A stretch of 64,000 bases of DNA, taken from Escherichia coli. Its GTDB lineage: Bacteria; Pseudomonadota; Gammaproteobacteria; Enterobacterales; Enterobacteriaceae. The notes below the pieces were generated by a model, which saw only the letters and a program-made list of their open reading frames with translations, searched no databases and was not told where the DNA came from. Positions 44,832 to 49,412 of the stretch are shown here, one piece after another. Made by a program: the position numbers and the translations under genes. The stretch lies in NCBI RefSeq assembly GCF_036507355.1, contig NZ_AP027877.1, one strand, 5' to 3'. Within the stretch, counting starts at the first letter, position 1. Each line of letters begins with the position of its first letter.

Positions 44832-46124
44832 TTACCTGTTTTCCCACAATCTCAGCATCGCTTTGTGTTCGTCTGTCAGCACAATCTGCGGGCGTCTGGC
44901 TCGAATATAGCTAATCGCTTCATTAACGGTTTTACAGTGTCCGTAACATAACAACCATGCCGCCACCACCAGCGCACTGCGCGATAATCCCAATGCACAA
45001 TGGACCAGAACGCTGCCTTGCTCTTCGCGTAATGTTTCCAGCATCGCCACGGCCTGTCGGAGTTCCCCCTCTTCCGGAACCACCAGATCCAACATCGGTA
45101 CACAGAAATAGAGTCGATCTTTTGTCTCTCGTCCTCGAGGGAATTCAAAGGTGACGTCCAGAACCGCATTCTGTGCCGGAATATGTCGTGGAAACGCCCC
45201 TAAATAAACACCAGCAGTCATTTTGCTCACCGGCTCCAGGCGACGACAAAACCAACGCATAGATAGCCACATCCCGATACGCCAGGGCAATGTCAGCCAG
45301 TAAACGGCGGGCGGGAGTTTCCCCTGACTATCTTTCCCTGTTGTTATCGCGCCAAGCCCACCGTACCCACGGCCAATAATGAGTAGCGATAATACTGGCC
45401 AACATAACCAGACTGACCACCATAACTGAACCATCATCATTAGCTCCATCAACACAATGCACGCGCACGCGCCTACGACATATGGCAGTGCTATTTTGAT
45501 TCGACGTTGATCAGGTTTCTGATAATTCCAACGACGGTCGACGGGTACCATCCAGTCAATCAACATACCTCCCGCCAGCCCTGTGATGACATCAATAAAA
45601 TGATGCTGCCAGGTTGTCAGCGTCGAAATGGCGATGAGTAAAAACCATCCGCCGCAGACTTTACGCCACCTCACAGCCAGATGCTGACGAAAGTGACGCC
45701 AAAGTAGCCAGCAGAGAATAATATGCAGCGAAGGAGACTGGTTATAAGGCAGATCAAACAGTTCAAGTTGCGAAAATAGCCATCCTGTCACCCCACTCAC
45801 TTCAGGACGGATAAAACTAAACTTCAGCGGGTAGAGAAAAAAACCGCAGCAGGCCATTACCGTTGCCAGAATAAGCCGGTGGACAAGTCGGCGCTGTTCG
45901 AATGTCGAGCTACAAACGAACAGCGAAAATCCATATAAAAGATCCAGACTCCAGTAAGGAACAATAGTCCAGGGAAGAAAAGGGATCGCCGTTTCCCAGC
46001 CGAATACCTGACTGGGGATATCATGGCTGTTAAAGTCCTGAACCGCGGTGAACTGATTTAGAGATCCATAGGTGAAGAAGAAAAACGGGGCCAGCAACAA
46101 TAACCAGCCAGCGCCTTGTAGCAA
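44832..46124 (-). CDS. ynbD: membrane-anchored dual-specificity-type phosphatase
   Basis: ORF 44832-46220; start uncertain (TTG at 46124 would give 430 aa); N-terminal TM domain; C-terminal active-site loop HCALGLSRS (CX5R). Confidence 0.75.
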
Positions 46125-46137
46125 TACGTTCCGGCGT

Positions 46138-47895
46138 TCAGTTATCACGACGCACCGCCATCGAAACCGTAAAAATGCCCCACTCATCAATCCGTTGAGT
46201 GCATTTATCAAATCCGGCATTACGCACGAGCGAATCCATCTCCCCTTGCGAACGCACGCGCATTACCCACGGTTTACCATCTTTATGACTGGTTAACACC
46301 CCGGCAATCAGCTCCAGTTGTGGGTGCCACGGCTGCCCGGTGTAGAGGAGAATGCCGCCCGGTTCGATGGCATTGGCAAGACCTGCGAGTGAGTTTTTTA
46401 CCTGCTCATTTTCGGGAAAAAGCTCATACAGGCCAGAGACAATCGCCAGCGTAGGCCGCGGAGTTAACGCGCTGAGTTCCTCTGGGTTAAACGCATCGCC
46501 CTGTTCAAAACACACCCGCCCAGACATTCCCCGTTGAGCAATCATCTCTTGCCCCTGTGCAACATTTAACTCGCTGTAATCACGTAACAAAATATCGCTT
46601 ACGGCAGGCTCGTTTGCCAGCGCATCCAGTACATAGCGCCCATGCCCTGCGGCAATGTCAACCACGCGGACGGCTAAACCTTTGGCGTGGAGATCGGCAA
46701 CGGCTTGTTTAATCAGTATTTGTAAATGGGTTTTGCGCTGGCGAATACCGCGCCAGCCAACACTGTTCAGGTAGATTTTGTCGATTAAGCGCCCGAATGC
46801 GTTACTACCTTGCGGTTGATTTTGATAGACATAATCCAGCGAACTGCCTGAATCAAAGCCGGTGCCCATTCCGAGATGCAGGCCCGCAGAGTGCGTCCCG
46901 AACAATTTCATCGCTTTACGCATAAAGCGATACGCCAAATCAACCGGCGATAATGGCACGGGTCCACCTGAAAGGAGCCGCCAGCGATCCGCTGATGGTC
47001 CAGTGCGGTCTTCATGCTGATAATCAAATTTTTGTGACTTGTTAGCATATAAACGACTAATAAAGCTTTGCATTTTTTCAAATGCCTGCGCCCTGTTCTC
47101 TTCACCCAACGTGTCATGATAAAAGCCAGGCAGCAGATGCAGCTCTTTCAGAGGGCTACGTAATCTCTGATAAAAATCAATCTGCGGTTGACGATGCACC
47201 ACATAGTCATCGCCTGATATCAGAAGTTGCGTGGGGAGCGTAATCGCCGCCGCATCGCTAACAATACGTTCAGACGTTTTATAAAGATCGAGCAAGATAT
47301 TAACGGCAATCGCCCGTGTGATCAGCGGATCATTATTGAAACTCGCCACCCGTTGCCGATCGTGGGTCAAATAGCGTCCTTGCACATAGGAATTAATAAA
47401 AAACAGACCACGCAGACGATGCCATAACGCCAGCGCAGGACGTGCCAGCGGCACATACAATTTAACCTTAAAGGCCGGAGAAGCCAGCAGCAGCCCGCGA
47501 ATTGCAGGCGCATAATCATGAACCCATGTGGCAACCAGCACTGCGCCGACGCTTTGCGCGATCACTACCACCTCTTCCAGTCCAACCTGGCTGTCGCTGG
47601 CAGCAAAACGGACAAATTCATCGACATCCCGCACTGAACGCGCAAGAGATGGGCTATAACCACGCGGCCCCGAAGTTTTTCCATGCCCTCGGGCATCCCA
47701 GGCATAAAAAGCAGTATCTGGCATCGCCAGTTCATCAACGAGATGTTGTAGACGACCAGAATGTTCATGACCGCGATGAAATAAGACGATGACCTTTTTC
47801 GCCCCGGGCTGTAAAGCGGGCCAGTGCCGATAAAACAACGCTGTATTATCACTGGTGGTAAAAAAATGTTCCCCAGGGATGCGTGAATTTTCCAT
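46138..47895 (-). CDS. ynbC: bifunctional alpha/beta-hydrolase (lysophospholipase-like) / SAM-methyltransferase-like protein
   Basis: 585-aa [28 protein letters not shown]... Confidence 0.8.
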
Positions 47896-47910
47896 TTTCT
47901 CTATTTTCCT

Positions 47911-48807
47911 TCAGTAACAGCAGTAGCGAATAAAATAAAAAAATACCGGATCGGTGAAAATTAATGAGTCAATCCTGTCAAGGAGTCCGCCATGTCCTGG
48001 TAATAGTTTTCCGCTATCTTTAACACCAATATCTCGTTTGATGGCTGACATCACTACATCGCCGCAAAAACCACTAATACCAATTAACAAACCCGCTAAT
48101 AATGCCTGTAATGTATTTAGCGGTGTCAGCAACGGTCCAATAATCAGTGACGCAATCATGGTGGTGATGACGCCCCCCACCAGACCTTCCAGCGTTTTTC
48201 CCGGGCTGACTTTGGGGACCACTTTTCTTCTGCCGCAGGATTTCCCCCATAAATACTGTGCAATATCGTTTGACTCTGTTAACGCCAAAAGAAATAACAC
48301 CAGTAACGCCCCGCCCTGGGTATTTATGGTTGGCAACATTAATAGCCAGGCGGTATGACTCAAGGCGAAAACGGTCATTATCCAGCCCCAAAAAATGGCG
48401 CTCACGATATGCAGAAAACCGGAGGGATCACCCACAAAAACTCGCCAGGTGGCTAATATCAGAAACCCAGTCAAAGGTATAAATAACAGAAACAGCTCAA
48501 AGCAATTAAAACCGATAAGCAAATAGTTAAGAGGAATAACCCAATATAACCAACGCGGAAAATGTACGGATATAAGCGTACAATATTCTTTCAATGCCAG
48601 AAAACTTATCAGCGCAAAAAACGTCAACGTCATCCAGCGTGGACCTGAAATCACCAGTGAAAAACAAATGACGATACCCCACCAGGTACGAATACGTAAT
48701 GTAACTTCATCCCCTTTTCTCTCCGGTAACCGCCATACCCGAAAACGGTTTATCAGCGTTGCTAAAATTAACAACGCGAAAAGTGTTGCCAGAGATTTTT
48801 CCAGCAT
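47911..48807 (-). CDS. ynbB: CDP-diglyceride synthase (CdsA)-like membrane protein
   Basis: 298-aa polytopic ORF; 1-nt start/stop overlap with ynbA. Confidence 0.8.
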   Translation of the reverse strand: MLEKSLATLFALLILATLINRFRVWRLPERKGDEVTLRIRTWWGIVICFSLVISGPRWMTLTFFALISFLALKEYCTLISVHFPRWLYWVIPLNYLLIGFNCFELFLLFIPLTGFLILATWRVFVGDPSGFLHIVSAIFWGWIMTVFALSHTAWLLMLPTINTQGGALLVLFLLALTESNDIAQYLWGKSCGRRKVVPKVSPGKTLEGLVGGVITTMIASLIIGPLLTPLNTLQALLAGLLIGISGFCGDVVMSAIKRDIGVKDSGKLLPGHGGLLDRIDSLIFTDPVFFYFIRYCCY

Positions 48808-49412
48808 TATCTTTCAGCACTCATCAGGAGCACACTCCGACAACGATTAATCGCAGTCCAGATAAGCAGAATTGAAGCAATGCCCCATAAAAGATTATTC
48901 CATTGCATCCACTGTGGATAAATGGCAACGGCCAGCCCCCACAACCCAAATATTAACGCACGATCGCTTTTGCCGAATGGACCGGCATAACTGCGAATAC
49001 CGTTAATCGTCTGCGCGAGTAAACCGCAAAACTCAGTCAATATGGTGCAAAATAACATGAGTATTACGAGTGATGCGTTACTTTCCGGTAAAAATAAAAA
49101 CGGTAAATAGAGCGCAATATCGGAAATAACATCGCCAGTTTCATTCAAAATCGCCCCCAGACGTGTTTGCTGATTGCACTCACGCGCCAACATGCCATCC
49201 AGCGCATTGAGTGCCATACGGATAAAAAGCACGATGGGCAATAGCAAAAAGAGGATGGGTTGTGCGACCAACATCAACAGCAATCCGTTAATAAGAGAAA
49301 GCGCCAGTGCAGCAAGAGTGATGTGATTCGCTGTAACATGGTGCTTATAAAGCCAAAACATCGTCGGCCTTAACAGCGACTGAAAGAGCGGTTTTATCTG
49401 GTAGAGCGTCAT
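48807..49412 (-). CDS. ynbA: CDP-alcohol phosphatidyltransferase family protein
   Basis: ORF 48807-49418; ATG third codon gives 201 aa; motif DGMLAR...G...LNETGDVISD fits the CDP-alcohol phosphatidyltransferase signature. Confidence 0.8.
   Translation of the reverse strand: MTLYQIKPLFQSLLRPTMFWLYKHHVTANHITLAALALSLINGLLLMLVAQPILFLLLPIVLFIRMALNALDGMLARECNQQTRLGAILNETGDVISDIALYLPFLFLPESNASLVILMLFCTILTEFCGLLAQTINGIRSYAGPFGKSDRALIFGLWGLAVAIYPQWMQWNNLLWGIASILLIWTAINRCRSVLLMSAER

Follow-up and report, generated by a model that had tools for sequence, protein, structure and literature searches.

Four genes of Escherichia coli, ynbA, ynbB, ynbC and ynbD, encode enzymes of the type that act on phospholipid headgroups, which raises the question of whether they form one pathway, and of which lipid this pathway would make. 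They were studied in a window of 64,000 nucleotides, the whole stretch of E. coli DNA that was analysed, where they lie at positions 44832-49412 on the minus strand. The reading we favour, to which we give a probability of roughly 0.4, is that ynbABCD is a self-contained and normally silent CDP-diacylglycerol (CDP-DAG) branch that makes and processes a minor phospholipid, and that it is what remains, in the Escherichia lineage, of a six-gene lipid cassette that is widespread and horizontally mobile. That a lipid module lies behind these genes is well supported, while its product and individual steps are proposals. The first-pass annotation regarded the product as undefined; this stands for the operon as a whole, which has no published product, but not for YnbB, which on its own has been assigned to the synthesis of the glycolipid MPIase. 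Three points escaped that annotation, namely the variant motif of YnbA, the second domain of YnbD and the reduction from a six-gene cassette.

Organisation of the operon

ORF calling placed the four co-oriented genes at the location first given for them and confirmed their tight packing, and a Pfam profile search upheld the domain assignments of all four proteins. None of the genes has an internal stop and the same four are annotated in RefSeq E. coli genomes; the window carries an intact E. coli/Shigella-type ynbABCD. ynbA (48807-49412) and ynbB (47911-48807) overlap by 1 nt (ATAATG), ynbB is separated from ynbC (46138-47895) by a 15-nt spacer with an AGGA inside, and ynbC overlaps ynbD (44832-46148) by 11 nt. 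The last junction would become a 13-nt gap if ynbD started at the TTG at 46124; the GTG start used here is that of RefSeq, and the longest ynbD ORF extends to 46220. A terminator scan of the four genes returned terminator-like matches at or below the shuffled expectation, every one of them within coding sequence. With a single strand, junctions of -1, +15 and -11 nt and no internal terminator, the genes are predicted to be a compact four-gene operon.

The ATG of ynbA is preceded by an AAGGA Shine-Dalgarno sequence 7 nt upstream and by an intergenic (promoter) region of 169 nt (49413-49581, minus strand), which is colinear and about 99% identical with that of E. coli D8. A simple consensus scan of this region gave no sigma-70 promoter-like match. 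In K-12, a promoter activated by BglJ-RcsB has been mapped, with its start site and binding site upstream of ynbA; ‘ynbAB’ is listed as a BglJ-RcsB target, and the operon is normally silent (PMC3950696). The operon had been described as directly beside an IS1 rearrangement, but the IS1 (50479-51246) is located upstream of ynbA at 1,066 bp from its ATG, with a truncated ydbD in between. The 169-nt region is untouched, and no effect of the IS1 event on ynbABCD is visible. At the other end, a hairpin with a perfect 11-bp stem and an 8-nt loop (44793-44822) lies between the stop codons of the converging genes ynbD and azoR (fold of -21.5 kcal/mol, z of -3.4 against shuffles). The terminator scan missed it because it has no T run; lacking a U-tract, it is possibly a bidirectional terminator or a 3'-end stabiliser.

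YnbB and YnbA

YnbB (298 aa) belongs to the CTP_transf_1 family (PF01148, 231 bits) and retains the cytidylyltransferase signature SAxKRxxGVKDSGKxLPGHGGxLDRxD when aligned to Thermotoga maritima CdsA (4q2g), at S254-S281 (47965-48048, minus strand). It is not a full-length equivalent of the housekeeping CdsA: it scores 108.7 bits against a cut-off of 385 on NF008635, with residues 160-291 alone matching. This CdsA paralogue makes CDP-DAG in vitro and supports MPIase synthesis (PMC6362211, PMC7018664); it does not complement a cdsA knockout (PMC6362211), nor can it sustain the bulk synthesis of phospholipids (PMC7018664, which summarises Sato 2019).

YnbA (201 aa) matches the CDP-alcohol phosphotransferase profile (PF01066) with 37.9 bits for a cut-off of 22. 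Its best NCBIfam matches are archaetidylinositol-phosphate (AIP) synthase (74 bits, cut-off 180) and PIP synthase (47, cut-off 170), followed by PgsA (29, cut-off 109) and PssA (18, cut-off 107), and it thus stays below the curated equivalog cut-offs of all four; its best PDB match is a mycobacterial PIP synthase (6h53, E 4e-8). The signature motif had been noted as present, which holds for two of its aspartates but not for the other two. In place of the canonical D-x2-D-G-x2-A-R-x8-G-x3-D-x3-D, residue-by-residue alignment gives N69-x2-D72-G-x2-A-R-x8-G86-x3-N90-E-x2-D94-x3-D98 (49119-49208, minus strand), where D72 and D94 are retained while N69 and N90 replace the first and third aspartates, which are Asp in all the PIP synthases and in the CHPT1 aligned to YnbA. 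The N-D-N-D pattern is found in 114 of 120 close homologues and in 110 of 113 motif-bearing representatives of 50%-identity clusters; N69, N90 and E91 are conserved to at least 90%, and D72, G73, A76, G86, D94 and D98 are invariant. Judging from these alignments, the N-D-N-D active site is a family-wide feature and not an oddity of the window. Since two of the four metal-binding aspartates are replaced, YnbA may perform a different chemistry or take another donor. Two Arg residues that are invariant in the family align with R155 and R195 of the M. tuberculosis PIP synthase, which we take to bind the phosphate of the acceptor. A literature search found no paper ascribing a function to YnbA or YnbC.

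The YnbB literature invites a different reading, that the operon is dedicated to MPIase: YnbB would make CDP-DAG, YnbA, instead of CdsA or YnbB, would condense it with GlcNAc-1-phosphate to GlcNAc-PP-DAG, and YnbC and YnbD would trim or modify intermediates. YnbB overproduction raises or restores the MPIase level and cold induces ynbB together with cdsA (PMC6362211, PMC11413397, PMC7018664), and displacement of CMP from CDP-DAG by a phosphorylated acceptor is the kind of reaction that a CDP-alcohol phosphotransferase carries out, for which the N-D-N-D site could reflect a phosphate nucleophile. A search of the MPIase literature found nothing on YnbA, YnbC or YnbD, and a term search of PMC6362211 and of a 2026 TAT preprint found no mention of ynbA, which leaves room for such a role. 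We nevertheless consider this reading decidedly unlikely, as MPIase does not change on deletion of ynbB and CdsA is reported to suffice by itself (PMC6362211), the operon is normally silent, and the family keeps an invariant D94, presumably the base for a hydroxyl nucleophile.

YnbC and YnbD

YnbC (585 aa) joins an N-terminal serine hydrolase of the monoacylglycerol-lipase/lysophospholipase type (47041-47895, minus strand; Hydrolase_4, 228 bits) to a C-terminal class I SAM-dependent methyltransferase (46141-47040, minus strand; Methyltransf_20, PF12147, 503 bits). The best PDB matches of the former are the M. tuberculosis and human monoglyceride lipases (E 1e-15), with whose catalytic triad S115, D230 and H260 align; these residues and HRGHEH at 40-45 are invariant across 40 orthologues, while the nucleophile elbow reads A-Q-S-V-G in place of the usual G-x-S-x-G. 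The latter has a Rossmann-like fold and SAM-binding motifs, and a methyltransferase fold search gave no pointer to a lipid substrate.

YnbD (438 aa) had been described as a membrane-anchored CX5R phosphatase. The phosphatase is there, in the C-terminal part (44832-45248, minus strand; DSPc, PF00782, 96.6 bits), with the P-loop C384-A-L-G-L-S-R390 (44979-44999), of the HCx5R form, and the general acid D354; its structural match to PTPMT1 is about as good as those to protein DUSPs. The presumed anchor is predicted to be a second catalytic domain (45249-46148, minus strand), of the PAP2 superfamily and of the sphingomyelin-synthase/IPC-synthase type. It scores 19.3 bits on the PAP2_3 profile, below the cut-off of 27. 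It has the PAP2 fold and conserved C1 (RP), C2 (PSxH) and C3 (HxxxD) motifs, as RP115, NQxPSLH at 136-142 and TTWQHHFID at 178-186 (approximately 45591-45809, minus strand), and SMSr and Aur1 are better structural matches to it than PgpB and LpxE.

Another reading is a redundant phosphatidylglycerol route, in which YnbA would be a second phosphatidylglycerophosphate (PGP) synthase and one of the two YnbD domains the PGP phosphatase, as for mitochondrial PgsA and PTPMT1; the PAP2 fold is common to YnbD and PgpB. We find this highly improbable: YnbA scores lower on the PgsA model than on the inositol-phosphate synthase ones, the methyltransferase and lipase are left without explanation, and pgsA is essential in E. 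coli despite the presence of ynbA. Moreover, overexpressed YnbD does not stand in for the phosphatases of PGP or C55-PP: pTrc-ynbD rescues neither the BWPGPTs strain (pgpA pgpB pgpC thermosensitive) nor bacA-ts strains (PMC7413402). The negative result with PGP counts against the favoured reading as well.

The cassette in other bacteria and its state in E. coli

The neighbourhood of YnbA homologues was compared at 59 species loci with at least 6 kb on each side. YnbB is a neighbour in 49 of them (83%), a PlsC-like acyltransferase in 47 (80%), YnbC in 39-40 (68%) and YnbD in 37 (63%), with none of these in 2/59, and a gene for a small membrane protein is also recurrent. Unbiased clustering of all flanking ORFs yielded only these four families and the small membrane protein. 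The gene set is retained although its order is shuffled between lineages, the hydrolase-methyltransferase fusion of YnbC and the PAP2-DSP fusion of YnbD are essentially universal, and Rosetta-stone fusions of YnbA with YnbC and with the acyltransferase were found. The clustering spans proteobacterial classes and Bacteroidetes, and by this clustering and the occasional fusions the idea that the combination of lipid-headgroup enzymes is meaningful gains support, the four enzymes forming a functionally coupled module. A CDP-DAG synthase gene adjacent in 49/59 loci, and coupled to ynbA in translation in the window, would fit a YnbA that uses a CDP-activated donor and releases CMP. Eighteen loci have YnbA, YnbB and the acyltransferase alone and eight have YnbA, YnbC and YnbD alone, which means that the set of six is not obligate.

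No precursor-synthesis gene, inositol-phosphate synthase or glycosyltransferase was found by the flanking-ORF clustering. The first of these implies a ubiquitous acceptor, which would also suit the phosphatidylglycerol route (glycerol-3-phosphate, for example), while the lack of a glycosyltransferase counts against a dedication to MPIase. So does the presence of the cassette in Pseudomonas, Rhizobium, Neisseria, Campylobacter and Bacteroidetes, which to our knowledge are outside the known makers of the ECA-type trisaccharide.

The syntenic azoR-linked site of Citrobacter, Hafnia and Serratia still has the acyltransferase and the small membrane protein. As E. coli has lost both, its own pathway may lack steps. 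Among 5,426 complete E. coli genomes, 804 (15%) do not have the operon, and in others it is disrupted by an IS; in strain 26561, ynbA is split by an IS1. Since MPIase is reported to be essential, these absences also speak against a dedication to MPIase. Compared with the closest E. coli, the window has 26 nonsynonymous against 20 synonymous codon differences, among them A286D in YnbB, where 25 orthologues have A, G, S or V, and under standard conditions no phenotype has been seen in ynb knockouts (PMC6362211, PMC7413402). All this could indicate that the Escherichia/Shigella operon is an evolutionary leftover, partly dismantled, silent, without a current physiological role and drifting to loss. 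We regard this as unlikely, if the least so of the alternatives considered up to here, given that the four ORFs are full length and that the residues checked in the window copy are all present (YnbA N69, D72, N90, D94 and D98; the YnbB cytidylyltransferase signature; YnbC S115, D230 and H260; the YnbD CX5R P-loop). From these conserved motifs the enzymes look active. Moreover, 85% of E. coli have kept the operon, with 96-99% identity, its promoter is dedicated and regulated (PMC3950696), and ynbB is among five genes with reduced insertions in a Tn-seq screen of cells making only ECA-PG (PMC8609368).

Proposed pathway

For the favoured CDP-DAG branch, the acceptor, the product, the topology and the sequence of steps are inferences from the enzymes and their context, as is the channelling of CDP-DAG. 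In full cassettes, the PlsC/Aas-like acyltransferase, lost in E. coli, would make or re-acylate the glycerolipid backbone. YnbB would then turn phosphatidate into CDP-DAG, releasing none to the bulk pool, and YnbA, a PIP/AIP-synthase-like N-D-N-D transferase translationally coupled to YnbB, would take it and transfer its phosphatidyl group to an alcohol that is common and probably phosphorylated. The extra phosphate would be removed by the cytoplasmic CX5R domain of YnbD, as PTPMT1 does on PGP, and the periplasm-facing, sphingomyelin/IPC-synthase-like domain of YnbD would hydrolyse the phospho-headgroup or pass it on. Finally, YnbC may deacylate and methylate the pathway lipid, or a product released from it. 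In E. coli the operon would be normally silent and dispensable. We know of no lipid product linked to the ynb genes, nor of an extra phospholipid class reported in E. coli lipidomics.

A bolder and unlikely variant is that the N-D-N-D transferases of the YnbA type form a hitherto unrecognised enzyme class of their own, with the cassette acting as a lipid-carrier cycle. If so, YnbB and YnbA would load a phospho-headgroup onto diacylglycerol at the cytoplasmic face and, after flipping, the periplasm-facing YnbD domain would move it to an envelope acceptor and regenerate diacylglycerol, in a bacterial counterpart of the PI-to-IPC headgroup transfer; in a sub-variant, YnbA would be the dedicated GlcNAc-PP-DAG synthase that the MPIase pathway is missing.

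Comparison with known systems

The closest relatives of YnbA by sequence are the PIP/AIP synthases (mycobacterial PgsA1, Bacteroides and archaeal), which share with it the invariant Arg residues aligned at R155 and R195, and whose pathways follow the logic proposed here, a CDP-activated lipid and a phosphorylated alcohol followed by a phosphatase. YnbA differs from them by its scores far below their cut-offs and by Asn at the first and third motif positions, and the ynb cassette by the absence of an inositol-phosphate synthase and by its phosphatase, in which a DSP is joined to a PAP2/SMS-like domain and which is not of the PgpA type. YnbB has the catalytic C-terminal half and signature of CdsA and its published CDP-DAG synthase activity, while its N-terminal half is unrelated, it cannot supply bulk phospholipid (PMC7018664), and its homologues sit with YnbA in a conserved cassette in taxa far from Enterobacterales. 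The mitochondrial PGP synthase and PTPMT1 likewise pair a CDP-alcohol phosphotransferase with a CX5R lipid phosphatase of dual-specificity fold, and PTPMT1 is among the top structural matches of YnbD. The basic residues of the PTPMT1 and PTEN P-loops are absent from that of YnbD (CALGLSR), and YnbD failed to rescue cells deficient in PGP phosphatase (PMC7413402).

The structures that best match the membrane domain of YnbD are those of sphingomyelin synthase, SMSr and the IPC synthase Aur1. The C2 and C3 motifs of the domain belong to the S-x-H and H-[HY]-x-x-D types and its active site is predicted to be on the non-cytoplasmic face, as in these enzymes; the identity is 11-13%, however, and the YnbD domain is fused to a cytoplasmic phosphatase. 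We know of no ceramide pathway in bacteria with the ynb cassette. Lastly, the lipase domain of YnbC, with its intact Ser-Asp-His triad, and the cassette acyltransferase, which matches the acyltransferase domains of Aas and AGPAT, recall the enzymes of lysophospholipid turnover (monoacylglycerol lipase/PldB and Aas/PlsC, respectively), although all their scores are below the equivalog cut-offs, and the YnbC hydrolase is always fused to a methyltransferase of the uncharacterised family PF12147.

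Organisation of the ynb operon and its surroundings

The ynbABCD genes lie on the minus strand as four ORFs without interruption: ynbA (48807–49412, 201 aa), ynbB (47911–48807, 298 aa), ynbC (46138–47895, 585 aa) and ynbD (44832–46148, 438 aa counted from the RefSeq GTG start). Their outer limits match exactly the operon coordinates proposed in the first-pass annotation. The operon is bounded by hrpA/azoR on one side and a truncated ydbD on the other, and the compared part of the window (43900–50478) is colinear with E. coli D8 at 98.9% identity; RefSeq annotates these four genes in D8 as well. 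The stop of ynbA and the start of ynbB overlap by one base (ATAATG), a 15-nt spacer containing AGGA separates ynbB from ynbC, and the last 11 nt of ynbC are shared with ynbD. Terminator-like patterns detected by a terminator scan of the operon were no more frequent than in shuffled sequences, and all fell within coding sequence. Where ynbD and azoR converge, a stable hairpin formed by an 11-bp perfect inverted repeat lies between their stop codons (44793–44822; −21.5 kcal/mol, z −3.4), with no U-tract on either strand. A consensus sigma-70 scan upstream of ynbA gave no match, which is compatible with an activator-dependent promoter but is no proof of one; in K-12, the ynbA promoter has been mapped and is activated by BglJ-RcsB (PMC3950696).

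When its flanks (49582–50478 and 51247–53493) are compared with D8, a 768-bp IS1 (50479–51246) is found to stand in place of about 3.0 kb. The missing DNA comprises the 5′ 1,410 nt of ydbD, of which only the C-terminal DUF2773 part remains, the whole of pdxI, and about 0.5 kb at the 3′ end of a ydbA-type autotransporter gene. Identity to D8 past the element is 91.5%, lower than before it. A role for IS1 as driver or disturber of the operon was rejected, since the region upstream of ynbA is intact and the element is 1.07 kb away, past the ydbD remnant.

Properties of the encoded proteins

Pfam searches bore out the earlier domain list for all four proteins, with matches to CDP-OH_P_transf (YnbA), CTP_transf_1 (YnbB), Hydrolase_4 and Methyltransf_20 (YnbC) and DSPc (YnbD). 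The YnbA signature motif noted in the first pass is indeed present, but it is non-canonical, with Asn at N69 and N90; aligned residue by residue, it reads N69-x2-D72-G-x2-A-R-x8-G-x3-N90-x3-D94. This N-D-N-D pattern is shared by 114 of the 120 close homologues and by 110 of the 113 representatives of 50%-identity clusters that carry the motif (38–56% identity to the query). In an alignment of 103 sequences, N69, N90 and E91 each reach at least 90% conservation. The pattern is a family-wide trait and no local mutation. The early cholinephosphotransferase annotation of YnbA, which EcoCyc has withdrawn (PMC3781023), was likewise rejected here.

YnbB is a paralogue of the housekeeping CDP-DAG synthase CdsA; it keeps the catalytic signature, although the CdsA model is matched over the C-terminal half only. 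Work from the Nishiyama group reports that its overproduction increases the amount of the glycolipid MPIase, and that deletion of ynbB alone has no effect (PMC6362211, PMC7018664, PMC11413397). According to a review (PMC7018664), YnbB makes CDP-DAG in vitro but cannot sustain bulk phospholipid synthesis. This failure to feed the bulk pool is consistent with a hand-off to an adjoining partner. The MPIase literature treats YnbB alone, as a back-up enzyme for MPIase, and ynbA goes without mention in the searchable text of PMC6362211 and of a 2026 TAT preprint.

In YnbC, all three residues of the hydrolase triad (S115, D230, H260) are invariant, as are the SAM-binding motifs. The hydrolase part is similar to monoacylglycerol lipases, and a fold search with the methyltransferase part gave no pointer to its substrate. 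Literature searches returned no match for PF12147/Methyltransf_20, nor for YnbD with PTPMT1. In a single strain background only, a transposon insertion in ynbC has been reported to make cells accumulate polyphosphate (PMC2435150). The order of the helices, taken with the positive-inside rule, would place the PAP2-type site of YnbD in the periplasm and its CX5R domain in the cytoplasm. Tian et al. counted YnbD as a fourth putative PAP2 protein in E. coli and found cells without all four to be viable; YnbD complemented neither PGP-phosphatase-deficient nor C55-PP-phosphatase-deficient strains (PMC7413402). This negative result weakens the reading of the operon as a redundant PG route, which is very unlikely. 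Anti-phage defence was also dropped as a reading, as PADLOC gave no match for any of the four proteins.

The ynb genes in other bacteria

A YnbA-family profile search found relatives in the genomes of at least 594 species, the matches listed including Enterobacterales, Pasteurellaceae, the Pseudomonas syringae group, Rhizobium, Phyllobacterium, Brucella, Neisseria, Bordetella, Variovorax, Nitrosomonas, methanotrophs, Campylobacter, Sulfurospirillum and Bacteroidetes. Partner genes were mapped at the best 80 of these, and the counts are restricted to the 59 loci flanked by 6 kb or more in both directions. A YnbB paralogue is present in 49 of the 59, an acyltransferase of about 210 aa (PlsC/Aas-like) in 47, YnbC in 39–40 and YnbD in 37, and only two loci have none of them. 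The order is A-B-T-C-D-s in Enterobacterales and Snodgrassella (T, acyltransferase; s, small membrane protein) and A-C-D-s-T-B in Pseudomonas, Variovorax, Bordetella and Neisseria, while Rhizobium and Brucella have divergent arrangements. That the set is kept although its order is reshuffled between lineages points to selection acting on the set as such. All-against-all clustering of the flanking ORFs revealed no other recurrent family besides the small three-helix membrane protein, so that the cassette is self-contained and includes no gene making a special headgroup precursor. The hydrolase and methyltransferase are fused in 48 of 49 cases and PAP2 and DSP in 45 of 45, and two metagenomic proteins appear to join a YnbA-type transferase to the YnbC hydrolase and methyltransferase (P0194, 807 aa) or to a PlsC-like acyltransferase (P0200, 436 aa); these fusions further support a coupled set. 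That the ynb genes form a functionally coupled lipid module is well supported.

The small protein (135–160 aa), which follows ynbD in many cassettes (for example L004 13182–13589, L042 12838–13293 and L029 12805–13293), shares a Q-G-A-L-K motif and belongs to no Pfam or NCBIfam family; E. coli lacks the gene. At two Vibrio fluvialis loci (L002 8606–8998 and L003 1970–2362), a 130-aa ORF lying between ynbA and ynbC joins the N-terminus of YnbB to the C-terminus of the cassette acyltransferase, a chimera showing that an internal deletion took place. The V. fluvialis cassette adjoins a resolvase gene, which agrees with horizontal mobility.

The arrangement without acyltransferase and small protein, as in E. 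coli, is seen at one of the 59 loci, and Citrobacter carries the full set adjoining azoR, apparently at the same chromosomal site. This marks the Escherichia operon as a reduced form, and it could be asked whether it is a decaying remnant. In addition to the gene loss, the YnbB of the window differs from two E. coli references by six lineage-specific residues. One of these changes, A286D (codon at approximately 47950–47952), directly follows the catalytic DRID motif, where a set of 25 diverse orthologues has a conserved small residue (A, G, S or V). Together with 26 nonsynonymous against 20 synonymous codon differences from the closest E. coli across ynbABCD, these changes suggest relaxed constraint in the window's lineage. 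In the mastitis isolate E. coli 26561, ynbA is split by IS1A into two pseudogene fragments (L001 7808–9190), which also favours decay. The ORFs of the window are however intact, the checked catalytic residues are all there, and the operon is kept in 85% of E. coli (no match in 804 of 5,426 complete genomes), which makes a remnant possible but doubtful.

Proposed pathway and its relation to known systems

The cassette was rated as a CDP-DAG-dependent phospholipid pathway. A private CDP-DAG branch is the most parsimonious reading; we give it a probability of roughly 0.4 and infer its specific steps and product as follows. The acyltransferase, where present, would build or re-acylate the backbone, YnbB would supply CDP-DAG, and YnbA would move the phosphatidyl group onto a ubiquitous, probably phosphorylated, alcohol. 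The product would then be dephosphorylated by the cytoplasmic CX5R domain of YnbD, its headgroup hydrolysed or transferred by the periplasm-facing, SMS/IPC-synthase-like domain of the same protein, and YnbC may carry out deacylation and methylation. An operon dedicated to MPIase, as the overproduction data could imply, is unlikely: it is missing from those 804 E. coli genomes, ynbB deletion has no phenotype, and the cassette contains no glycosyltransferases and is found far outside Enterobacterales. The conserved genomic partners suggest another or wider native role for YnbB, and the cassette is relevant to how the MPIase literature reads this enzyme.

Since the ynb genes are annotated and partly studied, the locus itself is not new. 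The searchable literature yielded no paper giving the operon a product, in line with the first-pass view, nor one assigning a function to YnbA or YnbC. To our knowledge, it also leaves undescribed the family-wide N-D-N-D active site, the SMS/IPC-synthase-like character of the YnbD membrane domain, and the status of ynbABCD as a reduced version of a widespread cassette of six genes. Phospholipid synthesis in E. coli is commonly regarded as fully mapped; ynbABCD adds both a second CDP-DAG synthase and a second CDP-alcohol transferase, whose metal-binding motif is altered, as well as three more lipid-type catalytic domains. With the cassette occurring in so many species, the question becomes one of a defined pathway that can be tested and no longer of an orphan oddity of E. 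coli.

CDP-alcohol phosphotransferases count drug targets among their members, for example mycobacterial PIP synthase, and the N-D-N-D motif offers a natural experiment on the catalytic mechanism of this family. The closest named relatives of YnbA are archaetidylinositol-phosphate and PIP synthases, with scores far under their membership cut-offs. Arginines aligned with R155 and R195 of the M. tuberculosis PIP synthase, which presumably bind the acceptor phosphate, are invariant across the YnbA family, which lends support to the step proposed for YnbA. In the residue-by-residue alignment of the signature motif, the mycobacterial PIP synthases and human CHPT1 all have D-x2-D-G...G-x3-D-x3-D, unlike YnbA.
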